Positions 3,581 to 41,191 of a stretch of DNA of 41,191 nucleotides are shown piece after piece. Below the pieces are notes generated by a model. That model was not told the DNA's origin and made no database searches. It saw only the letters and a program-made list of their open reading frames with translations. The translations under genes were made by a program, and so were the position numbers. Positions within the stretch are counted from its first letter, which is position 1. Each line of letters opens with the position of its first letter. Source of the DNA: Candidatus Altiarchaeota archaeon (GTDB lineage Archaea; Altiarchaeota; Altiarchaeia; IMC4; SCGC-AAA252-I15); NCBI GenBank assembly GCA_043800255.1, contig JAZDNF010000004.1, positions 1 to 41,191 on the forward strand. Reading direction: 5' to 3'.

Positions 3581-4435
3581 CTACCGTCCCCTTGTTTTTA
3601 ATTCAACTCCTGATTCGTCCTCGATTATCTTTTTGAATCTCTCCAAGAGCGCTTTTTGTTTTTCCTCTTGCGGCGTTACGGTCTTTGATGCGTATCTAAT
3701 CACACTCTCCACCCATCCTAACATCGGTCGGCTGTAGAATGATTTGTCATCTGTGATTATGGCATCAGAGCCCTTTTCCGAGTCGAACAATATTAGCGCT
3801 TCCTCATCCTTCCCAAAAGTCCCGCTCCAATAGGTTTCTGACTCTTTGCACCTCTTCACGAGCCTGCCGACCGCACGCAGGCAGTCATCCAACGGAGTCA
3901 TATCCCCGTTTTCGTTGTAACCCCTGGCCGCGTCTTTTACTCTCTCAGTGAAAGGAATCCCTCTCGGCTCTACGACATAAAACAGGTTGCTCTTCTGGTC
4001 GTGAATTACTGCCGCCTGGGGGACGACAGGGAGTCCCTGCGTGTATTGGTCCATCGTCTTCCCGCATTCTGCGATGACCTCGTCGGCTCCCTTGTTCAGG
4101 TGGGATGATTTTATCACAGCGCGTTCTCCGATTTTGACCGATTCCCTGCTGGTGCTCGTATGCAGTTTGTCAGCATCAGAAAAGCCGTCTAAATACTTGT
4201 CTAAATCTTCGACACTGTAGACTGGGACTTTCACCTTTTTCTCAAGGTAATCTCTGGTTATACTAACCTCCCGCAGTTCAGGATGCCCCCCCTCAACTAT
4301 GCTACCCAGACCGAGGGCTTTCATCTGCTCGCCCGCCTTCTTCAACAGCGCATCAGATGTCAACTCTCCTACACCCTTCGGAAGCCTAAACTGCTCAAGC
4401 ACGCCCTGCTGAAATCTGACCTCCTCCTTGTGCAT
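3581..4435 (-). CDS. Hypothetical protein, degenerate protein-kinase-like (RIO/Kdo/Bud32) fold
   Basis: Ordered motifs AVIK, AE, GLPVVP, YVVE, VGRLVKR, IITDD; no HxD..N. Confidence 0.5.
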   Translation of the reverse strand: MHKEEVRFQQGVLEQFRLPKGVGELTSDALLKKAGEQMKALGLGSIVEGGHPELREVSITRDYLEKKVKVPVYSVEDLDKYLDGFSDADKLHTSTSRESVKIGERAVIKSSHLNKGADEVIAECGKTMDQYTQGLPVVPQAAVIHDQKSNLFYVVEPRGIPFTERVKDAARGYNENGDMTPLDDCLRAVGRLVKRCKESETYWSGTFGKDEEALILFDSEKGSDAIITDDKSFYSRPMLGWVESVIRYASKTVTPQEEKQKALLERFKKIIEDESGVELKTRGR

Positions 4436-4455
4436 AAAATACTATAGGGCGAGCA

Positions 4456-4470
4456 GGAAGAAAAGAAAAA
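4456..4470 (-). terminator. Oligo-U terminator after tRNA
   Basis: TTTTTCTTTTCTTCC on the minus strand directly after the tRNA 3' end. Confidence 0.6.
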
Positions 4471-4471
4471 G

Positions 4472-4602
4472 TAGCGGGGGGTGGATTTGAACCACCGACC
4501 TTCGGGTTTCTTAACTCAAGCGCTGCCCGTGAAGGCAGAGCGAGTCCGCGAAGCGGACGAGTGTATGAGCCCGACGAGCACTCCTGGCTGCTCAACCCCG
4601 CT
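4472..4602 (-). tRNA. Initiator tRNA-Met(CAT) with 56-nt intron at 37/38 (4508-4563)
   Basis: A1-U72 acceptor AGCGGGG/CCCCGCT, three G-C pairs in the anticodon stem, CTCATA^intron^ACCCGA, GGTTCAAATCC T-loop; full CCA not encoded. Confidence 0.95.
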
Positions 4603-4615
4603 ATTAGGTTTTGTG

Positions 4616-4713
4616 CACAGCGGATTATACGTGTCATCGAGTGGCCGGAAGGCCACGAAGATGGCACAATCTGCCGGCTGGATTTCCAGCCGCTGGCAGT
4701 TAACCCCGCTGTG
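4616..4713 (-). ncRNA. Structured RNA / pre-tRNA leader of unknown type
   Basis: Closing stem CACAGCGG/CCGCTGTG enclosing two GC-rich hairpins; TATA-like element about 25 nt upstream (4731-4741). Confidence 0.55.
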
Positions 4714-4780
4714 TTGTGTTTTTTTGGTGCTTTATATTTATGATGTTGCCGTATAAAAGATGTCTTTCCCATAGTTTTAT

Positions 4781-4843
4781 TGTCCAGATGATGAAAGCGA
4801 AGTAGGCTGACCGAGTGAAGACAAGGGTAGCTGCTGATGGGCA
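4781..4843 (+). ncRNA. Box C/D dual-guide sRNA (23S rRNA 2'-O-methylation guide)
   Basis: C ATGATGA 4788-4794, D' CTGA 4807-4810, C' GTGAAGA 4815-4821, D CTGA 4834-4837, two 12-nt guides, terminal stem TGTCCA/TGGGCA, TATAAAA at 4752-4758. Confidence 0.92.
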
Positions 4844-4862
4844 CCGTGTGTTGGTTTTTACG

Positions 4863-6821
4863 ATGTTGTCGGAGAAGTACGCTCAGAGGGCTAAGTTGGC
4901 TGCTGAGAAGGCTAAGCCGATACGTAATATTGACAAGCCGAGGGTTGCTTCTCCCACTCTTGTGAGCTGTGATGTTCCTGAGGCGGGAGTTGATGTTTGC
5001 GCTGGCAGGGAGTGGCTTCTGACGAACAGTATGGGCGGTTATTCCTCCTCTACTGTGTTGGGTTTGAACGTTAGGAGATATCATGGGCTTCTTGTTCCAT
5101 CATATGGGGGGCTTGTGAGGAGGCTTCTGTTGCACGGTTTCGAGGAGGCTTTGGAAACGTCTGAAGGCGTTCTGAGGCTGTCATGCGTGGATGCTGGAGG
5201 CTCATCTGGTGAGGGTTTCAAGCTCCTCAAGAGCTTCGAGTTGCATCCTACTGCTGTCTGTTTCGGTTATGATTCTGGACCTGTAACGGTTTACAAGAGG
5301 GTTAGCATGCTGTCTGAGGAGAATGCTGTCCTAGTCTCCTATGATGTTGGGAATGATGGAGATTCTGATGTAACCTTTAGCGTGAGGCCTCTGCTGAATT
5401 CTAGATTGCATTCCAGTCTCTCGACCGGTGGGAATTTCAGTTATAGTGTCATCCCTGTCGGCGGAAGCGGGGTCGCGTTCAGGACGGCGGAAGATTATCT
5501 ATTCCTTTACTGTGATTGCGGGGGCTACTCTCCTGAGGCTCCTAAGATCAGAGAGAATGTCTTTTACAGGGCGGAGAAATCTTCCGAGAGCTGTCTTGAG
5601 GCAGGCTCATTCACAGTTAAGGTTGGCTCCAGGAGCCAGCGGACTGTAAACTTCTCTGCCGTAGGCTATCCTACTGAGGGTGCTGCGGGGCCTGTCATGA
5701 AACGGATTCTCGATGTGGGTTTCAAGAACCTCGCAGGCTCCTGCAGGAATGTGCTGATGGGGTCTCCCATGATGTGCCTGTTATCGATGGCCGATTCTTT
5801 TGTCGTTGATTTCAGGCATAAGAGGGCGGTGGTGGCAGGCTACCCCCATTATGGTTTCAGATCCAGGGACGCTCTCATCTCGATGCCAGGTCTTATGCTG
5901 ATTAACGGCAGGCTGGGTGATGCGCGAAGCCTCTTGGAGTGCCTGCTGAACAATGTGAAGGCTGGCCGTGTGCCGTCAGAATTTGTCGGCGGAGACCCTG
6001 TTTACGGTAATCTCGACAGTTCCCTCTGGTGTGTTGACAGGCTCAGAGAGTACGTCAGGTACGCTGGCTTTGAGGAGGGTAAGGCGTTCCTCCACACCTA
6101 CTGGTGGACTGTCAAAGACATCATGCTGAACTTTGCGAATCTTGAGCGGGATGGTATGCTTGCCGCGGAGGCTGACAGTTGGACTGGTGTCAGGAAATCC
6201 CCGGTAGAGTTGCAGGGCCTCTGGTATAACGCGCTCAAGACTGTCGAGTATTTGAGCGGGCGGTTCGGGTACGAGATGCCTGACCTGAGGTTGGACGGTC
6301 TTCTGGAGCGTTTCGAAGAGAACTTCCTTGAGAAATACTGGAGAGACCATTATCTTCTGGATTCAGTAGGCTGCGATGACTTCAGGCCGAACCAGATTCT
6401 TATGCTTTCTATGGAATACTGTCCTCTGAAGAGCGAGTACGCGGTGAGGATTCTTGACCAGGCTGAGATTGCCCTTTTGACGTCTTACGGCCTTAGGAGC
6501 CTGGAGCAGCAGAGTCCGAAATACGATTCTGAAGGCTTCAGGAACCCTTACGATGGGGCTGTCTTCCCGTGGCTTTTCGGCCCCTACGTCAGGGCTTACT
6601 TGCGTTTCATGGGCGACAGCAGTAGGACAGCATTCAAGAAGATGCTGGACGACTTCTTCTCTCTGGTCATCTGGGAGGATGGCATCGGCTCTGTCAGCGA
6701 ATACTATGCTGGCGCCAAAAAGTTCGTTGGCGGGGGATGCCCCTTCTATGCGTTGAGCGTCGCAGAGCCTCTGAGAGCCTACTTTGAGGATGTGATGGGA
6801 CGGAAGCCTGCGCTACCTTGA
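4863..6821 (+). CDS. Glycogen debranching enzyme-like (amylo-alpha-1,6-glucosidase, GH133), divergent
   Basis: EWLLTNSMGGYSSST, RRYHGLL, VVAGYP..RD, RPNQI, GLRSL, SVAE; start set to ATG 4863 because GTG 4815 lies inside the C/D sRNA. Confidence 0.85.
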   Translation: MLSEKYAQRAKLAAEKAKPIRNIDKPRVASPTLVSCDVPEAGVDVCAGREWLLTNSMGGYSSSTVLGLNVRRYHGLLVPSYGGLVRRLLLHGFEEALETSEGVLRLSCVDAGGSSGEGFKLLKSFELHPTAVCFGYDSGPVTVYKRVSMLSEENAVLVSYDVGNDGDSDVTFSVRPLLNSRLHSSLSTGGNFSYSVIPVGGSGVAFRTAEDYLFLYCDCGGYSPEAPKIRENVFYRAEKSSESCLEAGSFTVKVGSRSQRTVNFSAVGYPTEGAAGPVMKRILDVGFKNLAGSCRNVLMGSPMMCLLSMADSFVVDFRHKRAVVAGYPHYGFRSRDALISMPGLMLINGRLGDARSLLECLLNNVKAGRVPSEFVGGDPVYGNLDSSLWCVDRLREYVRYAGFEEGKAFLHTYWWTVKDIMLNFANLERDGMLAAEADSWTGVRKSPVELQGLWYNALKTVEYLSGRFGYEMPDLRLDGLLERFEENFLEKYWRDHYLLDSVGCDDFRPNQILMLSMEYCPLKSEYAVRILDQAEIALLTSYGLRSLEQQSPKYDSEGFRNPYDGAVFPWLFGPYVRAYLRFMGDSSRTAFKKMLDDFFSLVIWEDGIGSVSEYYAGAKKFVGGGCPFYALSVAEPLRAYFEDVMGRKPALP

Positions 6822-10059: not shown

Positions 10060-11532
10060 TTAAAGGCTCATGATGAGGTTGATGCCGTTTATCATTGCAT
10101 CAACGCTTGCCAATATTATGTCTGCTCCGGTGCCTTGGGCTGTGACTATCTTGTCCTTGCTTTTCAGTTTGACTTCTATCCTCACCAGGGCGTCGCTTCC
10201 GCCTGAGACTGCGTCGACGTGGTATTCTGTGAGTTCGAATGGGACGTCCTTGCAGGCTGTTTTTATCGCGTTTATTGCCGCGTCCACCGGCCCGGTCCCG
10301 ACTCCTGATACCACCTTCTCGTCGCCGTTTATCCTCACTTTGACTGACGCTGTTGGCGTGAACTTGTTGCCTGCTACTGCGACAAGCTCCACGAGCTGGA
10401 GTTTAGCCTCCTTCTCTATCCCTAAGACCGTGTTCGCGATGCTTTCAAGGTCTACCGAGGTTACTTTCTTGCCCTTGTCTCCCAGGTACTTGATCTGCTT
10501 GAATATCTGCTCAAGCTGGCTGTCATCAGCATTTATCTTAAGCTCCTTGAGCATGGCTTTGACGGATTTCATGCCAACATGTTTTCCGAGGACGAACCGC
10601 CTCCTAGCTCCCACAAGCTCCGGCTTTATGAGCTCGTAGGTTTCAGGCTTCTTCAATATGCCGTCGACGTGGATTCCGGCCTCATGGGTGAACGCGTTCT
10701 CCCCTACTATTGCCTTGTTCGGCGGCACAGGCACGCCGGTCAGCCTCTCGACGAGGTCTGATATGTCCCGTATCCTTCTCGTCTTTATCCTGGTCTTGTA
10801 GCCGTAGCACATCTGCAGTGCCATCACAACCTCCTCGAGGGAGGCGTTGCCAGCCCTCTCGCCAAGCCCGTTGACTGTGACGTCGACGACTGTTGCCCCA
10901 TACCTTACTGCTGCGACGGTGTTCGCGGTTGCCATCCCCAGATCGTCGTGGCAGTGCACTCCCACAGGTATTTTAGCGCCTTTGGTGAGAAGCTTGAAGA
11001 GTGTCTGAGTCCTCTCGGGGGTCAGCACTCCTACGGTGTCAGCCATCGTGAACCTGTCGGCCTTATTCTCTACTGACGCTTTGAGAACTTTTTTCAGGAA
11101 TTCCGGGCTTGTTCTTGAACCGTCCTCCGTGCATAGGTCTACTCTTAGCCCGTGGTCTTTGCTGTAAGTTATCAACTCTCCGACGGCGTCCAACACTTTC
11201 TCCCTACTGCTTTTCAGCTTATACTTTATGTGCAAGTCTGATGTTGGGGCGACAAGGAACACGCAGTCGACGTCGCATCCTAGGGCGAGGTCTATGTCCT
11301 TCTGAAGCAGTCTGGTATAGCTTGCAACCTCAGCCTTCAGACCCTGCTTTGCTATGAGCTTTATGCTCTCACGCTCCCCCTCTGATGTTATGGCAGAGCC
11401 TGCCTCCAGGTAATCAACTCCGAGCTCGTCCAAGGCTTTCGCTATCTCAAGCTTCTCTTTCGGCGTCAGCGTGACGCCTGGAGTCTGCTCCCCATCCCTC
11501 AGCGTTGTGTCCAAAACCCGTATATTTTTCAT
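10060..11532 (-). CDS. cimA: (R)-citramalate synthase (LeuA family)
   Basis: [26 protein letters not shown] (resembles methanogen CimA rather than LeuA/AksA), [15 protein letters not shown], LeuA-type C-terminal regulatory domain; start ATG 11532. Confidence 0.85.
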
Positions 11533-11594
11533 CTTATAGAGTATCCTCAAGGATTTTTTGTCCCGTGAGATGAAAAGTGTGTTGTTGTGGAGGT

Positions 11595-11672
11595 TCAGCC
11601 CCCAATTATGATAGAGCCTATGCTGATGGTGATGCGAGAAAACCCAACCTTACTGTCTGAAGCTCTTCTCAT
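11595..11672 (-). promoter_or_regulatory. Ile-rich leader peptide ORF (25 aa) upstream of cimA
   Basis: MRRASDSKVGFSRITISIGSIIIGG*; 6 Ile in codons 14-23; TTTATATA at 11704-11697. Confidence 0.75.
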
Positions 11673-11708
11673 CTATGTATAATAAGAAAAATTGCCTATA
11701 TAAATGCC

Positions 11709-12326
11709 ATGATCGTCGCAGTAGACCAGGATGATGTTCTGATGGTTCCCGGTTCTATGGGCGTCCTCCAAGCGGAGTTGAACCTCAGAGAGGGCGAGAA
11801 GAAGGCCATAATGGAGGTCCTTCGCGATTACAAGCGGGGTAAGGCAACCACATTAGATGTTCATGCCGCACGATACAACATCCTTAAGGGTTATCCCAGG
11901 GACGAAATCTTGGAGGCGCTTGAGCGTATGTCTGCGAGAATCCCTGAGGAGTCTCGAAAGTTCGTCAAAAAAGTCAAAAATTTTGCAGACGTCTACATTG
12001 TCAGCAACAGCGATGTGAGCATCGTTGAAGAGATTGCGAAGTCACTTGATATAGATTCTGTCGCTGAAAACAGGTTCCTGTTTGAGCTGAAGTTCGTAAC
12101 AAACAGGAAGAGCGAGATGCTCATCCGCCGCGGGATCACGCCTGATGTTGTCATAACCGACGACCCCCTCAATGAGTCCGATTTCCTGGACATGGGTAAA
12201 CTGGGCATTGTTATGGCGAGGCGGGACAACCCTGTCACGTACTCAGAGGATATCAGAAAAAAATATTTTTTCGTGAACTCACTCGAGGAAGCGCATGATA
12301 AAATCGTCTCATCTATTCCCATTTAG
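11709..12326 (+). CDS. HAD-superfamily hydrolase, SerB-like, divergent
   Basis: N-terminal DxD (VDQDD), motif II IVSNS, IAKSLDIDSVAEN, motif IV-like TDD. Confidence 0.65.
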   Translation: MIVAVDQDDVLMVPGSMGVLQAELNLREGEKKAIMEVLRDYKRGKATTLDVHAARYNILKGYPRDEILEALERMSARIPEESRKFVKKVKNFADVYIVSNSDVSIVEEIAKSLDIDSVAENRFLFELKFVTNRKSEMLIRRGITPDVVITDDPLNESDFLDMGKLGIVMARRDNPVTYSEDIRKKYFFVNSLEEAHDKIVSSIPI

Positions 12327-16741: not shown

Positions 16742-19700
16742 ATGGGGACAATGAGGAAGATTATAGCACTGCTGGTTCTCATTTTCCTAGCACAGCAGGC
16801 TTCTGCCACTGTCACAATCTCTCTGAGCGCCAATCCGAACTACGGCGTCAATGAGACCATATCATTCTCGGGGACGATAACCAACGTTACCAATGCCTCC
16901 TCCGTTTCGCTGGCTAATGCGACGGTGAATGTGACACTGGAGAACAGCACGGGTGATGTGCTGTTGGCATCGACTTTGGTTTCCTCAGGAAGTGGAACAT
17001 TCACTGGCACTCTCACAGCGCCGTCTGTCAGCGGCACCTACCAGATCAAGGCAGGTTACAACGACAGTGAAACGCTGTGGGAGGGAGAACTCACCGTCGT
17101 AGTGTCAGAGCATGCTGTTGACACAATCAATATCTATCCTGACAAGGCGACCTACTACATTGGCGAATCAACGATCAGTCTGACTGCGAGTGCGGTGAGA
17201 TCGGTCGCTGGGACAGAGGTTGGCGTTGCTGACGTCTCAATAAACGGGACAATCAGATACGCAAATGAGACGGTAATATCAGGTTTCAACTGCACGACAG
17301 GTTCTACAGGGTCCTGCGACACGACACTGGCCGTTCCATCGGCTGTTGGGACTTATCTGATAGAGGCTAACAATTTCCTAGGCTCTACAACGGTAAGCGT
17401 GATATCGCTCGATGTCACATTAAGTACCAGAGACGACACAGGCGACAGTCTGAAGGCGGTCTACTCTCCTGGTGATAATGCCCGGATACGGGTGAAGGTG
17501 TCGTTCAACGGGACTGTGGATTCCAGCGTGAATTACACCTTCAGCGGCAGCATCAGCTACCCGAACGGGACGCAGGTTAAAGCAATTTACGAGAACCAGA
17601 CGGACGCGTGGGACAGGACCACGCAGACCGGTTGGCACAACTTCACAATCGACGGCAACTTCACGGCAGGCTCTTACATGGCATCAGTCACCGTGACGGA
17701 CGGCGCATCGAACGTGTCGCAGACAGTGTTCTTTTCAGTGCAGTCCTGGAGCATCACGCTTGAGAAGATATCAGGCTTTGAGTACAGCCTCTCAGCATTC
17801 CCCGGTTCTACGGCATGGTTTAAGATAACTGTGAAGAACCTGACGACAGGAGGTTCCATAACAACGTTGAATAATACGAACTTTAACATAACCTTGAGCA
17901 GTTCAGGAGATGCGGTAGGCTCATACAATATCACGGCAAACAGCACCTACAATTTCACATTCGCGATGCCTTCCTCAGTCGGAGCCTACACATTGCGGGT
18001 TCAGGTGACTCACGCCGGCACGACACAGTCCACTGAGGTGACACTGTATGCGATAAATGCCGTGGCGTCGGCGACGCCTGTGAACAGCGAGGGAGAATTG
18101 AAGGAACTGTTCGACGGAAGCGAGTACGTTCACATCCAGGTCACTCTCAGAAACCAGAGCAGCACGTTGAACATAACCAACCTGACCGTCACCGAAGTCA
18201 GGGATGAAGACGGCGATTTAGTCAGTTATTCCTATCAGGGCAACTGGAGCGGCGACGTTAACGGCACAAAGGAGTGGAGGAAGAACATATCCGCTGCGAT
18301 GCTGAAACTGGACAACCCCAACACAGGCGGCATGTACACCGTCAAAATCGAGGTCAGCAGCCAGTCTGCAGGAGGGTCACAGGTCATAAGCATCGCAGAC
18401 GCGATACAGGCGGGGCAGACTGCTGTCGCAAACACCAAATTCATAGTAGACCCCTACACCATATGGGCTTATCCGAAGGGCGAGGATGAGAGCTGGGGCA
18501 GGTACCAGTTCGCGGTCGGCGACAAAGTCTATTTTGACGTTACCGTGATGAAAGCCCAACACCAGTACGGCTCTGCCATGATGGCTTTTGAATCGGGCTA
18601 CGGCATGGGAGCTGGCGGCACCGGAGGCTACCCTGTTCCAGAAGTGGCACCCTCAAGGCAGATAGCGTCTTCAACAGAGAATGTGAAGAAGATGCCAAAC
18701 TCTGTTGCGGCCGCCGGGCCGGCGCAGCATAGCAGCATGGCAGGGAGTGGTGCGAGTTCCACTGCAGTCTCAGGAGCTACAGTAAACGTTTCTAAGATCA
18801 TAAACGATCAGACGTTCGAGGAACTGCCGTTGTCTGAGGTGAACTGGTCGTGCACTCAGACAAGCTCCACAGGCAGTTCAACATGCAGCATATACCCAAT
18901 AAATTCAAGCGGAAGCCAAGCTAACTGGAGCGGCGGAAGATACCATGTAGTGTTCCAGGTAACTGGGCCTGACAACGTCACAACAGGCCTAGGGCACTCT
19001 GGCTTCGAGGTCAGGAGCTTCTACATTTACGCATGGTCGACTTCGTGGATGAACAAGCCGACCGCCAACATAACATTCACGGTGCAGATGTACGACGCAG
19101 CCAATACCCAGTGGTGGAACTGGTACTATGGCGGCAGCAACGGCAGCACAGGCGGCTTGAACGGCAGAGTCTCAGTCTTGAAGGTGCTGTTCAATGGGGG
19201 CATGGGAGAGTGGATTTGGCCTCCGATAAACTACAATTACACTGGAACGCTCCCAAGCAACAAGCAGATCACAAACGGTCAGGGCAATTTCACGTTGAAC
19301 GCTCCGACTGGGAACTGGGGGTCAGGCTCCTACACGCTTGTCTTGAAGGCCGAGAGGACTGACGCCAATGGCACGGTGCTTGACACAGACTACGGTGAGG
19401 CTTGGTTTGACATCAGGCTCTGGGATGCGTGGGCGTCGCCGGTTGACGCGAATAACAGCTATCAGTGGACTCAATCGTTCGCCGCAAGCGATACTGTAAA
19501 CTTGTTCGTGAACATACACAACGCAGGCTCGTGGCTGTCTGGAGAGGATCTGACAAACGGGCCGGTAACGGTTTCGGTGAAGAAGATAGAGGACTTCACA
19601 TCATGGCCGCCGAACGTGCTGGATTCAAGCAACTATACCGCCAACTCCATAACTGTCTCAAAGTCAGCTGACTCATGGAGCGCCTACTATGGTGGCTCCT

Positions 19701-22660
19701 TCAATGCATCAGACTATCTGATAAACATCACCCCAGCAGGCGGGGTCTGGCCTACCGGATACTACAATGTTGTGTTGGATGTGAACGGGACGGACACCGG
19801 CTTCGGCTACTTTAACGTGATATCCTTCTATGCCAGCGCCCAGTTCGTCAATTCGAGCGGCAGCTACGCGTACTCTACCAGAGGGACTGGGCCGGTCTAC
19901 TTTAACGTGTCATCGTCCAGCGACACCTTCGGAGGCGAGCCTATAAACACGAGCATAAAATCGCTCAGCCTCATGATGTGGAGCTCATCAGGGCTTCCGA
20001 CTGAGTACACGTACCCTGATGACCTGTCGGTTTCGCCTGCAAGTATCGGAGGTTCCGCCCTGGTTCAGGTCAACAACACAGGAGGCGGCTGGCCTGCAGG
20101 CTGGTACAACGGCGAAATCGTGTTGAATGACAGCACCGGAGCGACTGCGACAGCATGGATCTGGTTCGAATCCAGGCCGTTTGTCGTGAACGCTTACACG
20201 ACATCCTACGAGGTTGGCAGGTCATCCAACGTCACAGCGACCCTCTCCATACTAGACCCGTTGGACTGGTACACGCAGCTGCCTGGCACATACGTCATCG
20301 ACAGCATAACGGACATGGACTGGGGCCCGATGGGAGGCGTGGGAACAGCGATAACAAATTACACGCCAGCGTATTTCACACAGAACGGCTCCGGAGCGTC
20401 TCTGACGATAACGCCGAACAACGGCGCGTGGAGTTCAGGATACCATAACCTTGTCGTGAGGGTCCGGGACAATGCGACCAACTCCAGCGGGGAGACGTGG
20501 CTATACTTCAACATCGTCCCGTTCACGGTGTCTGCAACACAGGATAGGTGGACTTACGGGTCATCGGAGAATGTCACAGTCAGCGTTAACGTGTCAGACC
20601 CGCTCACCGGAAACCCGGTCACCGCGAACCTGAGCAGGGTGTATGAGACGGACTGGTCTAACTGCTGGACGTGGCCTTGCCCGACGACAGAGTACAATTA
20701 CACGCCGCAGCTGATAAACGGGACGGCGAATGTCAGCATAATCGCCCCAGCCGAAGGCTGGAGCTCACAGTGGCACAGCCTGACGTTGGTGTTCGCAGAC
20801 CCAAGCGACCCGACCACAACAAGAGACCAGTGGATAAGCTTCGACAGCAGGGCATTCAACGTCTACCTGAGCCAGAGCGCATGGACGTACAGGAGAACGC
20901 AGAATGTGACCGCAACCGCTCAGATAACAGATTTGGACTATGTTACGCCGAAGGCTGCGAACGTCACCCAGGTTTATGAGATGAACTGGTCAAACTGCGT
21001 GTACACTCCCGCCTACTCATGCCAGCAGATTGATTACTCATTCAGTCCGACGTACATTAACGGCACAGGCAACCTAACAATCGCAGCCCCTGCCGGCGGA
21101 TGGTCTCCGGAGTACCACAACCTGAACGTCATCTTCGCCGACCCCAACAGCCCATCCGCAACCCAAACAGCCTGGCTGTACTTCGACTCCAGGTCGTTTG
21201 TAGGTTCTGCGTCACCGAGCACGTACTCCGCAGCGCCTGACAGTGCGGTAGACTTTTCCCTGTACGTTTACGAGCCGGACTGGTACACCCCCATAAACGT
21301 GTCAATAACCAACATAACCTACACATCATACAATTACAGCTCCTGGACGTATGACCCGCAGCAGCAGGCCAACTGGACTCTGCTGAACACGTCATCCTCA
21401 GAGCCGATGGAAGGCAGCAACGTCTACGGCCCCAGCATGTTCAGACTCTACCCCCCAGAAGACAACTGGTCCGTAGGCCAGTGGGGCTACGGCTCATACA
21501 ACGTATACGTGTACATGCAGACCGTGGACACAGCCGAAGCAGGCTCACTCTCAGGATACTTCTCAACCAGCGGAACCGCAATGACGACCACGAGCATATA
21601 CTATACCACAAGCACACTAGGCACGGACTGCGCAACCAACTGCAACAACTGTTACGATTCAACCAACTGCACAAACAGTTCAGCAGGATGCGTGTGGGAC
21701 AGTTCTATTAGCTGGTGTTATCCAGCAAGCACTTACACGTCATCGACGTTAGGTACAACGACTACCACAATAGCGGTAGCCTGTGACAGCAGCAACTACA
21801 GCTCCTGCGGAACTGCTGACAGCATCTCCAGCGAGGAGACAGACACGTTCATGTGCGGCTCACAACAGTGGTACAGTGTGACGACAAACGACACATGCAC
21901 GATAACATGGACGATGACAGACGACTATAACGCAGATTTCGACCTGCATACGCTCTGGAATGGCTCATGCCCGACAACCAGCGATTATGACTGCAGGCCC
22001 TACACCAGTTCAAACCAGGAGAGCTGCTCTAACTACTCATCAGCTGGAACCTATTATGCTATGGTAAACCAGTACACCAACTGGGGAGGCTACTACAACA
22101 TCACAGTAAATGTAACCTGCGGGAACATATCAACAACGTCCACAACTTCAACAACCTCAACCAGCACGACAAGCACGACAACAACGACGATAAGTACTGT
22201 TAATGTCCTGATATCTGAAGTGTTTTATGATACAAATGGGACTGATTCTAATGAGGAGTTTATAGAGTTATACAACCCAACGACATCAGAAATAAATATT
22301 ACCAATTGGAAACTTGGTGACAACGATGGCAATTATACCCTAGTTATAGCGTCGTCATTCCCCGGTGAGAGTTATCTGACATTTGCGAGAAATGACACAG
22401 GATTCTACAATTTGTTTGGTTTTTATCCAAATGCGAGTAACTTAACACTGAGTTTAGCTAACACAGGGGATTACGTTTATCTCTATAATACATCCGGCAG
22501 TGTCATAGACTTTGTTGCGTGGGAAAATTACGTTACAGGATGGAATATAAGTGCAGCGGAAGGTTATTCAATCCATAGGTATTACTTAATAGATACTGAT
22601 ACTTCAAGTGATTGGTTTAACGGGATGTCAACACCAAACAATCCTGGACCTATGATTTAA
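16742..22660 (+). CDS. Giant secreted surface glycoprotein: Ig-like repeats, Cys-rich segment, PPC-like domain, Thr linker, lamin-tail domain
   Basis: Signal peptide (MRKIIALLVLIFLAQQASA), dense N-x-S/T sequons, Trp-rich repeats of about 110-135 aa, VLISEVFYD...EFIELYN. Confidence 0.85.
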   Translation: MGTMRKIIALLVLIFLAQQASATVTISLSANPNYGVNETISFSGTITNVTNASSVSLANATVNVTLENSTGDVLLASTLVSSGSGTFTGTLTAPSVSGTYQIKAGYNDSETLWEGELTVVVSEHAVDTINIYPDKATYYIGESTISLTASAVRSVAGTEVGVADVSINGTIRYANETVISGFNCTTGSTGSCDTTLAVPSAVGTYLIEANNFLGSTTVSVISLDVTLSTRDDTGDSLKAVYSPGDNARIRVKVSFNGTVDSSVNYTFSGSISYPNGTQVKAIYENQTDAWDRTTQTGWHNFTIDGNFTAGSYMASVTVTDGASNVSQTVFFSVQSWSITLEKISGFEYSLSAFPGSTAWFKITVKNLTTGGSITTLNNTNFNITLSSSGDAVGSYNITANSTYNFTFAMPSSVGAYTLRVQVTHAGTTQSTEVTLYAINAVASATPVNSEGELKELFDGSEYVHIQVTLRNQSSTLNITNLTVTEVRDEDGDLVSYSYQGNWSGDVNGTKEWRKNISAAMLKLDNPNTGGMYTVKIEVSSQSAGGSQVISIADAIQAGQTAVANTKFIVDPYTIWAYPKGEDESWGRYQFAVGDKVYFDVTVMKAQHQYGSAMMAFESGYGMGAGGTGGYPVPEVAPSRQIASSTENVKKMPNSVAAAGPAQHSSMAGSGASSTAVSGATVNVSKIINDQTFEELPLSEVNWSCTQTSSTGSSTCSIYPINSSGSQANWSGGRYHVVFQVTGPDNVTTGLGHSGFEVRSFYIYAWSTSWMNKPTANITFTVQMYDAANTQWWNWYYGGSNGSTGGLNGRVSVLKVLFNGGMGEWIWPPINYNYTGTLPSNKQITNGQGNFTLNAPTGNWGSGSYTLVLKAERTDANGTVLDTDYGEAWFDIRLWDAWASPVDANNSYQWTQSFAASDTVNLFVNIHNAGSWLSGEDLTNGPVTVSVKKIEDFTSWPPNVLDSSNYTANSITVSKSADSWSAYYGGSFNASDYLINITPAGGVWPTGYYNVVLDVNGTDTGFGYFNVISFYASAQFVNSSGSYAYSTRGTGPVYFNVSSSSDTFGGEPINTSIKSLSLMMWSSSGLPTEYTYPDDLSVSPASIGGSALVQVNNTGGGWPAGWYNGEIVLNDSTGATATAWIWFESRPFVVNAYTTSYEVGRSSNVTATLSILDPLDWYTQLPGTYVIDSITDMDWGPMGGVGTAITNYTPAYFTQNGSGASLTITPNNGAWSSGYHNLVVRVRDNATNSSGETWLYFNIVPFTVSATQDRWTYGSSENVTVSVNVSDPLTGNPVTANLSRVYETDWSNCWTWPCPTTEYNYTPQLINGTANVSIIAPAEGWSSQWHSLTLVFADPSDPTTTRDQWISFDSRAFNVYLSQSAWTYRRTQNVTATAQITDLDYVTPKAANVTQVYEMNWSNCVYTPAYSCQQIDYSFSPTYINGTGNLTIAAPAGGWSPEYHNLNVIFADPNSPSATQTAWLYFDSRSFVGSASPSTYSAAPDSAVDFSLYVYEPDWYTPINVSITNITYTSYNYSSWTYDPQQQANWTLLNTSSSEPMEGSNVYGPSMFRLYPPEDNWSVGQWGYGSYNVYVYMQTVDTAEAGSLSGYFSTSGTAMTTTSIYYTTSTLGTDCATNCNNCYDSTNCTNSSAGCVWDSSISWCYPASTYTSSTLGTTTTTIAVACDSSNYSSCGTADSISSEETDTFMCGSQQWYSVTTNDTCTITWTMTDDYNADFDLHTLWNGSCPTTSDYDCRPYTSSNQESCSNYSSAGTYYAMVNQYTNWGGYYNITVNVTCGNISTTSTTSTTSTSTTSTTTTTISTVNVLISEVFYDTNGTDSNEEFIELYNPTTSEINITNWKLGDNDGNYTLVIASSFPGESYLTFARNDTGFYNLFGFYPNASNLTLSLANTGDYVYLYNTSGSVIDFVAWENYVTGWNISAAEGYSIHRYYLIDTDTSSDWFNGMSTPNNPGPMI

Positions 22661-22665
22661 TAAAA

Positions 22666-23865
22666 ATGAAACTCAAAGTGACTAATATGGCCTGGAGGGC
22701 GGGGATAGCGGGCTTAGTGCTGGTGCTGTTGACTGGTTTGGTGTCGGCTGCTTTCACTGTGCAGTCTTTTTCGTGTAATTCGCAGTCTGGCACGATTGTG
22801 GTTGAGAGCAGCGGGACGTTGAACTGTCAGGCCACGATAAAGAACACTGGAAGCTCCTCCTCAAACCTGTCGGACGTGTCCTTGGTTCTTGACGGCATAT
22901 GGGCTGAATCAACAAGTTATACTGGTCTGGGCTTCGGCAGCTCGGTCGGGGCGGGAGCGACGACGACCGCGACATTCGGCAACATCAAGCCGATAACCTC
23001 CGGATTGCACGGGTTCAACTATGTTAGGATAGGCTCTGTCACAGACAATTACCCCTCCTCCATGGTCGTGAACGTGTTAACAGTCAAGAACATGGTGTTG
23101 AATGTCCCTGACAACGCAACCTACGGCGACGAGTTCACAGTAAGCTCGTCGGTAACGTCCGGCGGAACAGCGGCCATCACATTAACATTAACGGTGAACG
23201 ACTGCGCTCTCGCAGCCGGGGAAACGGCCGCCAAGGCGCTGGGAACAGTATCAGACAACACCGTGAAATCAACCTCCTGGAGGGTGGTGATGGGCGCAGG
23301 AGAATGCAGCTTCAACGTGAGCGCCTCAAGCTCGTCGGGGGCTGTTACGGTGTCGAAGACGAAGAGCGAGAGCGTGACCTACAGCGGAGCGGCCACAACC
23401 ACGACGACAACAATAATATCCGTGGTTAACATAACATTGAACGAGATAATGGCCTATCCGAACCCGGGAGAGCAGGAGTGGATTGAAATATACAATGCTG
23501 GGAACGTCGCAGTCAACCTCAGCGGATGGCGGCTCTACAATAACACAGGCTTCTATAATCTCCTGGCTGAGAACATCTCAGTGGGAGGCTTCAAACTCTA
23601 CAATTACTCGCAGACCAGCCTCGGGCTGATCGACCTAGCTGATACTGTGACCCTGAGGAACAGCACAGGCTCTATAGTAGATACCCACACCTGGTCAAGC
23701 GCGACAACCAGAGGCCAGTCGATGATGAGGTCGTCAGACGGCGGGGGGGGGGCGTGGATACAGTCAAATTCCACGATGCCTGCTACGCCAGGCACCTCAA
23801 ACGTCAATCTGATGCAGCTTACGCTGGCAGCCGGCTGGAATCTCCTGAGCCTGCCCCTGAGTTAA
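22666..23865 (+). CDS. Secreted protein: Ig/CARDB-like domains, Thr linker, lamin-tail domain, terminal GWNL motif
   Basis: Signal peptide, LNEIM..P..EWIEIYN, TPG..N, ends LAAGWNLLSLPLS. Confidence 0.85.
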   Translation: MKLKVTNMAWRAGIAGLVLVLLTGLVSAAFTVQSFSCNSQSGTIVVESSGTLNCQATIKNTGSSSSNLSDVSLVLDGIWAESTSYTGLGFGSSVGAGATTTATFGNIKPITSGLHGFNYVRIGSVTDNYPSSMVVNVLTVKNMVLNVPDNATYGDEFTVSSSVTSGGTAAITLTLTVNDCALAAGETAAKALGTVSDNTVKSTSWRVVMGAGECSFNVSASSSSGAVTVSKTKSESVTYSGAATTTTTTIISVVNITLNEIMAYPNPGEQEWIEIYNAGNVAVNLSGWRLYNNTGFYNLLAENISVGGFKLYNYSQTSLGLIDLADTVTLRNSTGSIVDTHTWSSATTRGQSMMRSSDGGGGAWIQSNSTMPATPGTSNVNLMQLTLAAGWNLLSLPLS

Positions 23866-34121: not shown

Positions 34122-35522
34122 CTAGTCGTCTTTTCCGGTCCAACAGTAGAGGCATAATCTCTCCTTGGGCAGGCCTATCGCATCTATCATGTCGTCGAGC
34201 TGCTGGTACTTGAGGGTCGTGGCGTCAAGGTCTTTTCTGATCCATTCCACCATCTTCCTGTGTCTTTCAGACTTCTGGTCCTGGTACTCTTCCACATGCT
34301 TCGAGTTGTCGCCTTCCAGCGCCTTTATCGCCTTTCTGGCTGCGAGCTCTTCCAGCGTCCTTGTTGACAGGTTGAAAATGCAGGGGTACATGAGCGGTGG
34401 GCATGCCACTCTGATGTGAACCTCCCTCGCGCCGTTGTCGAATAGCTTCTTTATCGTGTAGTTCTTCAGCTGCGTGCCCCGCACTATCGAATCCTCGCAT
34501 ATTACGATGCTCTTCCCCTCTATGATGTCCTTGTTAGGTATCAGCTTCATCAAAGCTATCTGGTCCCTGGTTTCCTGCGAGGGGGGAGTGTAGCTTCTCC
34601 CATAACCCTGGGTATACTTTGTCATCGACCTCCTGAAGGGCAGCCCAGAACCAATAGCATAGCCGATGGCGTGACCAGTGCCGCTGTCAGGTATCCCCGA
34701 CGCCATGTCAGCTTTGATGTCATCGTCTTTGGCGAGCGCCTTCCCGCATCTCTCCCTCACGATTTCCGCGTTTATGCCCTCGTAGCTTGAGGCCGGAAAT
34801 CCTGTGTAAATCCACAAAAAAGAGCATATCTTCTGCTTCTTGTCCCTGCCGGCTATCGTCTCCATACCGTTATCCTTTATCAGCGCTATCTCCCCCGGGC
34901 CGATGAATTTTTTTGTGCTGAACCCGAGGTTGGGGAACGCGCACGACTCTGAGGCGACCGCCCAGCCGTCTTTGCCTTCAGCCACAACCAGCGGGAATCT
35001 GCCGAATCTGTCCCTGGCGGCGTATATGCCGTCCTTGTTCAGGAGGAGCAGTGATGTCGAGCCTTTTATCTCATCGAACATCCTCCGTATGCCGTCAACT
35101 ATCGAGCTCCCCTTGTTTATCAAAGCCGCTACCAGCTCTGTCGTGTTAACGCCGTCTTCCGAGAATTCCGCGAAAGTCTCCCCGCCTTCGATAAGCTTCT
35201 GCGCAAGCTCGTCTTTGTTCTCCACCAGCCCGTTCGTGCAGAGCGCGAACGTCCCGAACTTCGACTCCAGAATAAGCGGCTGCGGGTTGCTGTCGCTTAT
35301 AACCCCTATGCCCGCCTTCCCTGGCATGCTCTTGTAGTCGCCGTAAAATTTCGACTTGAACTGCGTCTGCTGGATGTCATGGATCCTCTTATGGAACCTC
35401 CCCCTACCGTTCAATACCGCCATCCCACCGTACTGCGTGCCCAAATGCGACTGATAGTCAGTACCCAGAAAAAGCTTCCCAGAGCAGTCCTCCCTCAGTA
35501 TAACCCCGAACAAGCCACTCAT
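34122..35522 (-). CDS. purF: Amidophosphoribosyltransferase, variant without N-terminal Cys
   Basis: RD.FG, ASES, PDSG, EDSIVRGT PRPP loop, ACPP, CLYCW. Confidence 0.88.
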   Translation of the reverse strand: MSGLFGVILREDCSGKLFLGTDYQSHLGTQYGGMAVLNGRGRFHKRIHDIQQTQFKSKFYGDYKSMPGKAGIGVISDSNPQPLILESKFGTFALCTNGLVENKDELAQKLIEGGETFAEFSEDGVNTTELVAALINKGSSIVDGIRRMFDEIKGSTSLLLLNKDGIYAARDRFGRFPLVVAEGKDGWAVASESCAFPNLGFSTKKFIGPGEIALIKDNGMETIAGRDKKQKICSFLWIYTGFPASSYEGINAEIVRERCGKALAKDDDIKADMASGIPDSGTGHAIGYAIGSGLPFRRSMTKYTQGYGRSYTPPSQETRDQIALMKLIPNKDIIEGKSIVICEDSIVRGTQLKNYTIKKLFDNGAREVHIRVACPPLMYPCIFNLSTRTLEELAARKAIKALEGDNSKHVEEYQDQKSERHRKMVEWIRKDLDATTLKYQQLDDMIDAIGLPKERLCLYCWTGKDD

Positions 35523-35639
35523 CTTAGAAGAAGGTTAACAATATGTTCCATAAGATAAAAACACAATCAGACACTGTCAGTCCGCGATTGATAGCTATTT
35601 ATACTCTACATTTATAGATTCTAATAGCAGTTCAGCTCT

Positions 35640-38600
35640 ATGAAAAGAAACTTTGGTTTCATCTCATTATTGGGCGCTGTTTTTGCCATACTTTTAGCTG
35701 TAACCTCTGCATCAGCTGTCGAGTGCAACTGCTCGACCTGTGATGGCTGTGAGACCCAGTTAAGCAACAGTTCCTGTTCTGTCGTGAAACTAACGGCGGA
35801 CATAACAAACTACGCTGGGAGTTGCATAAACAACCCGACAGGCTTCGCAAACAAGACCTTCGACTGCCAGGGGCATGCGATTGACGGGGATGATTATGTA
35901 TACGATAGTGGAATCTACCTTTCTGGAAAATCAAGCAACACAATAAGAAACTGTGTAATCACTGACTTTTATTTCGGAATTCAGCTGGCATCCTCAAACA
36001 ACACTCTGCTGACTGATAACATCGTAAGCTCGAATGACAATTATGGAATTGGCTTGGCCACATCCTCAGATAACATCGTAACAAACAACACTGCAAATTC
36101 GAACACCAATCAAGGAATCGTCATATCATCCTACTCTTTAAGCAACATCATATCGAACAATATTGCAAATTCAAATACTGGGTATGGGATGTTCCTGGCT
36201 TCTTCTTCAAGAAATAACACCCTGTCGGGAAACACTGTAAATTCTAACAGATACGGAATTACAGTATATTCCGCAAACAATAACACACTGCTGAACAACA
36301 CGGTGAATTCGAACAATGATTACGGTATTTTTCTGGACCTATCCTCGAACGTCACCCTGTCGGGAAACACTGTAAGTTCGAACACCAATTTTGGGATTGA
36401 GTTATACTCTGCCCCAAGTAACACCATATTGAACAATATTGTAAATTCGAACAAATGGGGGATTTACATGGGTTCTTCGAATAACGTCACCCTGTCGGGA
36501 AACACTGTAAGTTCGAATAGCCAGTACGGGATTTATTCGTCTTCTTCCTCGAACAATACCTTGTCAAGCAATACTGTAAATTTAAACAAATACGGAATCT
36601 ATTCCTACGGCTCTTCGACAAATAACATAACCCGCAATACCGTCTGTGCGAGCACAACTTCGGACTTCCAATCAAATGACTGGCTCTCAAGTTCTGGCGA
36701 CGACAACACCTGCAATGTTTCCGGTACATGGAACGACATCGGAACGACAGGATGCACATACGCGTGTCCGGTACACGACTGGCCGATGTTCCGCCATGAT
36801 TCGGAACATACGGGTTACACAACAAGTTCTGGGCCGTTGCAGAATACAACGCTTTGGAATTACACTAACGCTGGTCTCACATCCTCATCTACTGCAGTTT
36901 TGAATGGAGTAGTATACGTCGGTGCAGGTGACAACAGGGTTTACGCCTTGAATGCGTCTACGGGAACACAGGTATGGAATTACACGGTTGGTGGAGCGAT
37001 ATCCTACTCATCCCCTGCAGTTTCTGATGGTGTTGTATACATCGGCTCAGATGATAGCAAGATCTACGCCTTGAACGCGTCTACTGGGGCACATGCATGG
37101 AACTACACGACTGGCGGACAGGTACGCTCCTCTCCTACTGTTTCAAGCGGTATCGTGTACATTGGTTCTCAGGATAATAAGACCTATGCACTGAATGCGT
37201 TTACTGGAGCACATGTGTGGAATTACACAACTGGCAATACTATATCATCATCCCCCGCAGGTTCCAATGGCATATTATACATCGGTTCGGATGACAACAA
37301 GACCTATGCTCTGAATGCGTCTACTGGGGCGCACATATGGAATTACACGACAGGGGGGAATGTGTTCTCATCTCCTGCCATCTCTAATGGAAAGGTATAT
37401 GTTGGTTCAACTGACAACAGGGTTTACGCCTTGAATGCGTCTACTGGGGCACATGTATGGAATTACACGACGGGGGGCGGTAGTGGGCCATTGTCATCCC
37501 CTGCAATCTACAATGATATGGTGTACCTAGGTGCATGCGATAACAACTTCTATGCATTGAACGCTTCTACTGGGGCGCATGCATGGAACTATACGACTGG
37601 GAGTTGTGATATCTCATCCCCAGCAGTTTCAAACGGTGTTGTCTATGTGGGCTCAAATGGTTGGATAGTCTACGCCCTGAATGCGTCCAGTGGGACACTG
37701 ATATGGAGCTACACAACCGGCGGTCTTGTAGTATCCTCCCCTGCAGTTTCTAACGGTGTTTTGTATGTCAGTTCCTATGACACCAGGGTTTACGCATTTG
37801 GGTCTACGACAACTACCAGCACGACAACAACTTCGACGACAAGCACGTCAACGGTATCAACTACATCCACCACGAGTACTACAACGACCACAATTCTTAT
37901 CGAGTGCAACTGTTCAAGTTGCAGTGACTGTACAGCAAAATTGAACAATGCTTCCTGTAATGTCGTAAAACTGACTTCAAGTATAGCGAACTACAATGGT
38001 AGTTGCGTGTACAGTCCTGCAAATTTCACAAACAAGACTTTCGACTGCCAGGATTATGATATCGACGGGGTCGATTCCACTGATGTTTTTGCCGGAGTTT
38101 ATCTAGACGGAAAGAACAACAATAGAATACAGAACTGCGTAATAACCGATTTCTATTACGGGATTGCCCTCTGGAACTCAAGTAACAATAGCTTGCTCGG
38201 TAACACTGCAGAGTCAAATACCTATGGAATCATTTTATCTAACCAATCCTCAAACAACACCCTGAGCGGCAACGCATTAGCTTCAAATAGCGCTAATGGA
38301 ATTTACATGCTTTATTCATCAAACGGCAACAATCTGACAGATAACCTGATGTATGCAAACCTATGGCATGGAGTCTCAGTATATTATTCATCAAATAATC
38401 TGCTGAGATACAATATAGCGACTTCAAACAGCCAATATGGAATCTATATCGGCTCAAGCTCAAACAATACAGTAGTAGAGAACAACGCGAGCGCAAATAA
38501 TGCTAGCGGAATTGTTATAGACCACTCATCTTCAGATAGCATAAGTTCCAATACTGCGAACTCGAACACGGATGTGTGGTCCTACGGCATATGGCTGTAC

Positions 38601-40205: not shown

Positions 40206-40495
40206 GGGTTGTGGCCTGTAGTCCGTCTTATGTGAGCCTTTTTAGCGGCGTCGCCGCTGTTGGCTCTTTGGGCATTCTTCTAAGCCTACAGTTTTAGTAG
40301 TTGCACCACTGGCAGGCGGTGATCGTTTCAAACACCAGACGGGGCTCCTCAGCAAAACCCTCATAGTCTAACACCCCATTTGGATCTCGTCTCTGCAACA
40401 CCGCCGGAGACTCTCGCCTCCAAGTGTGCCATGATGTGGTGGACGGAACTTCCTCCGCGAACGCGAGTTCACGGGCAGCCCATCGGCCACTACCC
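40206..40495 (-). ncRNA. rnpB: RNase P RNA (archaeal, type-M-like)
   Basis: P1 GGGTAGTGGCC/GGCCACAACCC, CR-I GAGGAAGTTCCGTC, TGAAACG, GTGCAA, GAATGCCCA, CR-V ACATAAGACGGACTA; TTTTAAAC about 25 nt upstream. Confidence 0.93.
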
Positions 40496-40731
40496 GAGAA
40501 TAGATAATACACTACAGGTTTAAAAGCGTTGAAATCCAATTATATTATATGATGGTCAAAAGATGCGTGCTAGATCCGAACAGAACGTGTAATTCGTCAT
40601 GCATAGCGCACAGCCCCCAGGGATGTGCCGTGACAAACATGCCTTCTATGAGAAGATACTCTGAGGATTTAGGTCTGAAAGAAGTCTAGCGAAGTTCTAT
40701 TACGTGGATGGCTTGTCGCCAGGAGTGCATA

Positions 40732-41191
40732 GGGTGGTTAGGCGATTAGTACAGGTGGACTTAACACCTCGCCCGAAGGCTTGGTGCTTACATCCCCTGC
40801 CTATCAAGCCACTCTTTTAGGTGGAGCCTAAAGTCAACCTCTTTTTGGGAGTTGTTTCAGGCTTAGATGCTTTCAGCCTTTATCAACAACAGCGTGGCTA
40901 CCCGGCGATGCCCTGTCGGACAACCGGTACACTAGAGGCTGCGGTCCATCGTTCCTCTCGTACTAGATGATCCTTCCCCTCAGGTTGACAGCACTTCCAG
41001 TAGATGCCGCCAAACTGTCTCGCGACGTTCTAAACCCAACTCACGTACCACTTTAATGGGCGAACAACCCCACCCTTGGCTGCTTCTGCACAGCCAGGAT
41101 GCAGTGAGTCGACAGCGAAGTAGCAAGCAGCGGGGTCGATGTGTACTCTTACCCGCTACCACTCAGTTATCCCCGGGGTAGCTTTTCCATC
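40732..41191 (-). rRNA. 23S rRNA, 3' part (domains V-VI), truncated by the window edge
   Basis: GGGATAAC, TGTTCGCCCATTAAAG, sarcin-ricin loop AGTACGAGAGGAAC, GGCTGAAAGCATCTAAGCC; 3' end approximate. Confidence 0.97.

Follow-up and report, generated by a model that had tools for sequence, protein, structure and literature searches.

A short open reading frame (ORF) rich in isoleucine codons lies upstream of a LeuA/CimA-family synthase gene in a 41,191-nucleotide stretch of DNA from an uncultured Candidatus Altiarchaeota archaeon (contig JAZDNF010000004.1; the whole stretch is referred to here as the window), and we examined whether this upstream ORF (uORF) could act as an amino-acid-sensing leader. 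The cimA-like gene starts at a normal ATG behind a Shine-Dalgarno (SD)-like motif, GAGGA, similar to the GGTGAT-type SDs found before other window genes, and stands as a single gene, followed by a type II GAPDH gene. On the other side of the uORF lies a divergent plus-strand gene that had been overlooked in the preliminary description of the locus; its ATG at 11709 leaves an entire intergenic region of just 176 nt, of which 60% is A+T. The window contains a single further amino-acid gene, for an aspartokinase, which sits 26 nt behind its upstream neighbor and has no leader. Coordinates of the features discussed below are collected in Table 1.

Table 1. Features of the cimA-like locus and its putative leader (window positions).
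Feature	Position	Strand	Basis or remark
LeuA/CimA-family synthase, 490 aa	10060..11532	-	HMGL-like, HCS_D2 and LeuA_dimer domains
SD-like GAGGA	11544..11548	-	11 nt before the cimA-like ATG
uORF, 25 codons + TGA	11595..11672	-	read directly; no SD; predicted leaderless
Ile codon cluster	11604..11633	-	uORF codons 14, 16, 18, 21, 22, 23
TATA box TTTATATA	11697..11704	-	-32..-25 from uORF ATG; putative promoter element
TATA-like TATAATAA of divergent gene	11678..11685	+	-31..-24 from ATG 11709; read directly; putative function
Divergent gene, 205 aa, weak HAD-hydrolase match	11709..12326	+	ORF and domain search; ATG 11709
Segment 1, predicted mRNA 5' end including uORF AUG	11664..11674	-	pairs with segment 2 or 3; inverted repeat I3, folds
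Segment 2, local partner of segment 1 in free leader	11631..11642	-	ends at Ile codon 14; minimum free energy structure
Segment 3, anti-start element	11568..11577	-	inverted repeats I2, I3
Segment 4, cimA start-codon region	11526..11534	-	predicted to be sequestered by segment 3 in free leader (folds)
Small hairpin, 6 bp, 5-nt loop	11588..11604	-	encloses uORF stop codon; folds

The uORF encodes the peptide MRRASDSKVGFSRITISIGSIIIGG, with its ATG at 11672-11670 and its TGA stop at 11597-11595 on the minus strand, and it is the sole ATG ORF of the leader. Isoleucine codons occupy positions 14 (ATC, 11633-11631), 16 (ATC), 18 (ATA), 21 (ATC), 22 (ATA), and 23 (ATT, 11606-11604), so that six of the ten codons from 14 to 23 specify isoleucine near the 3' end of the ORF, the arrangement of a short leader ORF with a codon run. 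All ATH triplets of this stretch fall in the uORF phase (6/0/0 by phase), and the stop codon precedes the cimA-like ATG at 11532 by 62 nt (11594-11533). Every detail of the ORF given in the preliminary description is borne out by these readings. The 31 nt 3' of the stop (11564-11594, minus strand) contain no G on the mRNA strand, are C/A-rich, and are predicted to be mostly unpaired. The peptide, with its basic N-terminus and hydrophobic Ile/Gly/Ser tail, could by its composition be a small functional product whose place before cimA is coincidental, and archaeal Ribo-seq studies often detect small proteins (PMC10117724). However, its hydrophobic stretch measures only about 12 residues, so the tail is too short to span a membrane, and we give this explanation scarcely any credence.

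The putative promoter of the uORF is a perfect TATA box, TTTATATA, which is the single 8/8 match to the TATA pattern in the 200 nt scanned upstream of cimA and which ends 24 nt from the uORF ATG, close to the roughly 25 nt first reported. A TATA box about 25-32 nt before the start codon together with the absence of an SD characterizes archaeal leaderless transcripts, and the uORF has both. Archaeal promoters have a usual TATA-to-start geometry, and the spacing here fits an mRNA predicted to begin at the uORF AUG as a leaderless transcript. The same distance separates TATA and ATG at the divergent gene and in at least one further gene of the window, which makes leaderless initiation look common in this organism. 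The TATA-like element of the divergent gene, TATAATAA, is placed between the minus-strand TATA box and the uORF ATG, resulting in two interleaved promoters.

The preliminary description called the downstream gene cimA; its domains place it in the LeuA/CimA family, though family models do not single out CimA. Among NCBIfam models, the 490-aa protein matches NF002085 best (626 bits, cut-off 517); this model works at the subfamily level and bears the name 2-isopropylmalate synthase. The same model is also the best match for 11 of 12 proteins scanned from the loci compared below, all 11 of them archaeal, while the lone bacterial protein matches NF002088 best; NCBIfam thus does not separate CimA from LeuA among the window protein and these 12. 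A PDB sequence search with the 490-aa protein yielded only family-level relatives. Of 120 listed homologs, 15 are called D- or (R)-citramalate synthase by JGI and 19 are called 2-isopropylmalate synthase by NCBI, with the others nameless; the nearest of those listed are 65-83% identical, and the named ones are mostly from Candidatus Altiarchaeota or Altiarchaeales metagenome-assembled genomes. Five N-terminally extended homologs (P0029, P0050, P0052, P0079, and P0113), in which upstream DNA is present only as cimA-frame translation, gave no informative pattern. On this family-level evidence, the enzyme is plausibly CimA, for which isoleucine codons would be cognate.

Because the case for a sensor begins with the isoleucine cluster, its rarity matters, and the preliminary description had proposed estimating how often such a cluster arises by chance. 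We counted small ORFs, taken as ATG ORFs of 10-80 codons in six frames, that contain six isoleucine codons within 10 codons. Such ORFs proved rare: 2/400 in the window (the uORF included), 2/4975 in 80 loci from other genomes, and 2/20000 dinucleotide shuffles of the 176-nt intergenic region that yielded one, rising to 20/20000 shuffles when a cluster of any of Ile, Leu, Val, or Thr was accepted. By GC content, the 80 loci gave 2/988 below 0.40, 0/1031 at 0.40-0.45, 0/1819 at 0.45-0.55 (the band similar to that of the window), and 0/1137 at 0.55 or above. The chance frequency of such a cluster is therefore roughly 0.05-0.2% per small ORF. The other window ORF with six isoleucine codons in 10, at 5411..5331 on the minus strand, runs antisense within a glycogen-debranching-enzyme gene (4815..6821, plus strand), and its cluster is surely accidental, a natural example of a cluster without function.

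The leader also contains a set of complementary elements. As RNA, segment 3 can pair with the uORF start over 10 bp, one of them G-U, and with the cimA start over 9 bp, and the 9-bp helix it forms with the latter (11576-11568 with 11534-11526) is present in the minimum free energy structure. In all nine fold variants, the cimA AUG had a probability of being unpaired of at most 0.01, as expected in silico of a sequestered start codon; in the free leader this value was 0.01 for the AUG versus 0.40 for the SD. The 281 nt analyzed hold only three inverted repeats, all involving the two start regions and all made up of four related elements (11692-11678, 11674-11665, 11577-11568, and 11538-11524). 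An element complementary to both starts was found in 44/20000 random stretches and in 13/2386 window ATG pairs; these 13 include the present pair as well as the uORF ATG at 11672 with an in-gene ATG at 11495. Elsewhere in the window, at 35522-35667 on the minus strand, an upstream ATG and the ATG of a gene with a glutamine amidotransferase domain (34122..35522) likewise share one complementary middle element, probably a promoter-region inverted repeat, since the upstream ATG falls within a divergent gene.

These elements would also suit a regulatory leader that does not sense isoleucine, in which the hidden AUG answers to temperature, a protein, or a small RNA, or in which the elements are transcription-factor operators for the divergent promoters and the uORF is no sensor, whether translated or not. 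The consistent sequestration of the AUG across fold variants, the four related elements that account for all three inverted repeats, and the interleaved promoters agree with such a leader, as does the opening of the AUG in the free leader, which grows with temperature from 0.00 at 20 °C to 0.15 at 60 °C. It would, however, leave six in-phase isoleucine codons in the leader's only ATG ORF unexplained, no regulator gene is adjacent (the neighbor is a HAD-like hydrolase), and no Rfam family matches the region: searching 11300-11900 at E ≤10 gave three chance-level hits only, the best at E = 2.1. We consider a leader of this kind unlikely.

To see how a translating ribosome might affect the fold, we moved a 28-nt mask representing the ribosome footprint along the uORF codon by codon. 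Without a mask, the 5' end of the leader base-pairs with 11642-11631, and the cimA AUG also lies in a helix. When the A site stands at codons 16, 17, and 18 (Ile, Ser, and Ile), the probability that the AUG is open rises to 0.78, 0.78, and 0.50, respectively (0.79, 0.78, and 0.63 at 20 °C), and the 5' end pairs instead with 11577-11568. At most other codons, including the uORF stop, the AUG stays closed. A switch of equal size was found in 6/500 control stretches from the window; with a 41-nt mask, 1/600 controls reached this size, and 2/600 were closed when free and open when masked. The opening persists with other footprint sizes and with folding at 20 °C. Co-transcriptional folding would be expected to favor pairing of the 5' end before the downstream RNA exists. 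These computations lend moderate in silico support, sensitive to the choice of transcript ends, to a translational version of the mechanism in which a stalled ribosome may unmask the cimA AUG.

Taken together, we tentatively suggest, without calling it probable, that the leader mediates isoleucine-responsive, ribosome-mediated translational attenuation of the LeuA/CimA-family gene rather than terminator-based transcription attenuation. To the observed features and frequencies this reading would add a transcription start, translation of the uORF, a stall, a switch, and an enzyme that makes an isoleucine precursor. The stretch would then be an approximately 140-nt 5' leader of the synthase mRNA in an Altiarchaeota-like archaeon. 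Transcription from TTTATATA would begin at the uORF AUG or within 2 nt of it, and the uORF would be read as a leaderless frame. In the resting leader, segment 1 is predicted to pair with segment 2, leaving segment 3 on the cimA start codon and keeping translation low. When Ile-tRNA is scarce, a ribosome would stall with its A site at codons 16-18 and cover the local partner of the 5' end. The released 5' end would then capture segment 3, which is predicted to expose the cimA AUG.

Classical bacterial-type transcription attenuation, in which a stall at the isoleucine codons picks an antiterminator over a terminator, shares the leader ORF with its late isoleucine cluster, and coupled transcription and translation does exist in archaea. 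Archaeal intrinsic termination, though, depends on oligo-T tracts. No T run longer than 4 occurs between the uORF and cimA, and a pattern scan of 11300-11900 found no terminator-like hairpins (and no sigma-70-like sites). There is likewise no pairing that would compete with a terminator; the alternative pairings that were found concern the start codon. The preliminary description had likened the leader to attenuators of the ilvL/thrL/leuL type, and in this respect the likeness fails, making transcription attenuation very improbable here. The leader is filed under no known family, since a bacterial-type terminator is absent and the covariance model of RF03001, a haloarchaeal leader motif discussed below, has no match in 11300-11900 at E ≤10.

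Several observations weigh against an isoleucine-responsive translational switch. Three of the isoleucine codons stem, by eye, from about 2.5 copies of a hexamer (Tandem Repeats Finder called no repeat at 11500-11750), and the uORF region is an AT-rich divergent promoter. Only isoleucine codons 16 and 18 lie in the range of codons that opens the AUG, while codons 14 and 21-23 are without effect, and a valine codon at position 9 also opens the AUG partly (0.43). Moving the 5' end of the modeled transcript to 11672 or its 3' end to 11480 lowers the opening to 0.3, a 3' end at 11440 leaves at most 0.2, and folding at 60 °C also weakens it. Single 9-bp helices with a start region arise often (431/3000 random places and 7/29 window genes), more so than an element shared by both starts, and the whole leader folds no better than shuffles (z = -0.73). 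On the family-level evidence, LeuA as well as CimA is a candidate identity for the enzyme, and if it is LeuA, the isoleucine codons of the uORF would not be cognate. Finally, our literature searches yielded only bacterial cases and general small-ORF surveys and no archaeal cognate-codon leader peptide, in agreement with the preliminary description, which knew of no established archaeal attenuator of this kind.

Comparison with orthologous loci weighs on the same side. Our set comprised 37 full-length archaeal loci from Methanothrix, Methanolinea, Ferroglobus, Bathyarchaeota, Nitrososphaeria, and Halobacteria; among the matches listed, the best orthologous locus was 58% identical (Methanothrix) and none was from Altiarchaeota. 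The comparison thus covers phyla other than that of the closest relatives, the Altiarchaeota (65-83% identity). Within this scope, the conserved isoleucine-rich uORFs that the preliminary description would have expected at orthologous loci did not appear: in 161 upstream ORFs (-300..+30), none of the 37 loci reached even five isoleucine codons in 10. The best count per locus was 1 at 16 loci, 2 at 11, 3 at 6, and 4 at 4. An isoleucine-rich uORF is therefore no general feature of this gene. Apparent isoleucine-rich ORFs upstream in two loci (L021 and L023) were dismissed because they run antisense within the neighboring divergent gene.

A chance ORF is an alternative explanation. The uORF would then be an accident of an AT-rich divergent promoter or 5' untranslated region and of hexamer repetition, its predicted helices would be incidental, and cimA would be regulated in some other way, such as feedback inhibition via LeuA_dimer or a transcription factor. 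The base composition and interleaved promoters of the intergenic region are consistent with this, as are the second cluster of the window in a plainly non-functional place, the clusters found among the most AT-rich loci, the frequency of 9-bp start-region helices, the unremarkable fold score, a switch that is not robust, and the lack of an isoleucine-rich uORF among the 37 distant loci. The finding was, moreover, picked by a reader looking for exactly such patterns. Chance must nevertheless combine a rare isoleucine cluster with a position in front of a gene of the branched-chain pathway, a consensus TATA box spaced from the ATG as for a leaderless transcript, and a shared anti-start element giving a switch that few controls reproduce. 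We take an accident of this kind seriously as a possibility while doubting it.

Though the window gene stands apart in its leader, short ORFs of other designs were found at the loci compared. In the haloarchaea, RF03001 (leuA-Halobacteria RNA, a candidate cis-regulatory motif) was present in all nine loci searched (68-73 bits). Of 14 haloarchaeal loci, 12 show a TATA-like box and, at leaderless distance behind it, an ATG from which an ORF of 25-34 codons runs through RF03001 (L018, L019, L024, L025, L027-L031, and L033-L035; e.g., L030:2853-2933). This ORF contains an invariant GAA-ATT-C with a stop 3-4 codons later and one or two isoleucine codons in all, and the enzyme frame is +1 relative to it in all 12 loci. 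Just ahead of AAA-TTC, the main frame has GTG in six loci, GCG in five, and GAG in one, and the motif forms a conserved hairpin with compensatory changes.

Non-halophile loci presented a different arrangement. Of 23 such loci, 21 have an SD-like GTGAT and, behind it, an ATG or GTG from which an ORF of only 6-11 codons starts (L001-L007, L009-L015, L017, L020-L023, L026, and L032; e.g., L020:2970-3002), in Bathyarchaeota, Methanothrix, Methanolinea, and others. This mini-ORF reads M-x-x-x-F-I plus 0-4 codons with an invariant TTT-ATY, overlaps the 5' end of the gene, and has the enzyme frame at +1. At nine of these loci, the enzyme frame contains no ATG, GTG, or TTG ahead of the catalytic DTTLRDGE motif. 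The pattern of third-position variation (GGN, ATH) suggests that the gene frame is read through G-I-A-L-F at the mini-ORF loci, where an AUH codon might serve as the start or a hungry isoleucine codon might cause a +1 shift.

The window gene has neither the haloarchaeal nor the mini-ORF device. Because members of the family in other archaea, whether orthologs or paralogs, carry short ORFs with an invariant isoleucine codon, the window would nonetheless not be a lone case of such genes being controlled by a leader ORF. An extended reading, which we regard as rather a long shot, is that archaeal LeuA/CimA-family genes have repeatedly and independently come under the control of short uORFs that read Ile-tRNA supply, via three non-homologous designs. 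These would be a leaderless six-isoleucine uORF that unmasks the cimA AUG, the haloarchaeal RF03001 leader, and an SD-led M-x-x-x-F-I mini-ORF. In the last two, a hungry isoleucine codon in the A site could promote a +1 shift into the enzyme frame.

That bacteria sense amino acids through the stalling of ribosomes on leader peptides is textbook knowledge. Like the ilvL, leuL, thrL, and trpL attenuators, the window leader has a short ORF with a late cluster of pathway-related codons and, as proposed here, alternative pairings switched by a stall. Unlike them, it has no terminator hairpin or U tract, its predicted output is the unmasking of a start codon, its uORF is apparently leaderless rather than SD-led, and its host is archaeal. 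The ermC and cat systems use translational attenuation through stalling in a leader ORF. They resemble the proposed model more closely in that a hidden start site is freed by a ribosome stalled in an upstream ORF and control is exerted on translation. They depend, however, on a drug and an arrest peptide, whereas the trigger here would be a hungry isoleucine codon; moreover, the strand that rescues the start site in the window would be the 5' end of the same mRNA, lying behind the ribosome, and the AUG is predicted to be masked more than the SD.

Within archaea, RF03001 is likewise located upstream of a LeuA/CimA-family gene, but its ORF is not isoleucine-rich and overlaps the main frame, while in the window 62 nt separate the uORF from a gene with a normal ATG and SD. 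The main text of PMC5737381, the presumed source of RF03001, does not name the leuA-Halobacteria motif. For Haloferax leuA2 (HVO_1510), an archaeal LeuA paralog, an atypical start has been proposed in a passage of PMC8305020, and the haloarchaeal loci examined here appear to be its orthologs, whose start-codon problem fits. As described there, HVO_1510 resembles the window model in translation-level amino-acid control within the same gene family, but that case is a speculation on slippage and leucine rather than on a run of isoleucine codons, and the window gene start is canonical. The same source reports that disruption of HVO_0644, whose product is 47% identical to Methanocaldococcus jannaschii CimA, leads to isoleucine auxotrophy in Haloferax (PMC8305020). 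Our search of the literature on start codons or frameshifts of archaeal isopropylmalate synthases found nothing relevant beyond that paper. Among bacteria, the Corynebacterium ilvB-II motif, or ilvBNC uORF, is likewise a conserved leader uORF regulating a branched-chain amino-acid operon, and it differs in its bacterial host, its transcription attenuation with hairpins, and its genus-wide conservation, as described in PMC10272879 and PMC11857589. Archaeal uORFs are mentioned only generally in passages of PMC10117724 and PMC10219788.

Several other features of the window were observed. At gathering threshold, Rfam detected only two RNAs, both archaeal and on the minus strand: an RNase P RNA (40207-40494, 98 bits) and a 23S rRNA, truncated at the window edge, of which the 3' end is present (40726-41191). 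At 4471-4602 on the minus strand, a tRNA gene interrupted by a 56-nt intron fell below the Rfam gathering threshold and was missed by default ARAGORN; with introns allowed, ARAGORN called it Ser(CGA), while a canonical 37/38 intron position, judged by eye, would give the anticodon CAT. It overlaps a 229-aa ORF (4395..5084, minus strand) without a family match. Three plus-strand genes encode Lamin-tail proteins, which are probably surface proteins: 16742-22660 (1972 aa, also with an MG2 match), 22666-23865 (399 aa), and 35640-40121 (1493 aa, also with NosD/beta-helix and PQQ-like beta-propeller repeats).

If the cluster proves to be chance, the locus would serve as a useful caution on codon-run patterns in AT-rich promoter regions. 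If the proposed control is real, archaea would use cognate-codon leader ORFs, here in a distinctly archaeal build that combines a leaderless uORF, no terminator, and control via start-codon masking, and this would represent a new form of ribosome-mediated attenuation. The short isoleucine-codon ORFs before homologous genes of other archaeal phyla point likewise. Together, if true, these leaders would offer a testable route to cis-acting translational control of archaeal amino-acid biosynthesis.

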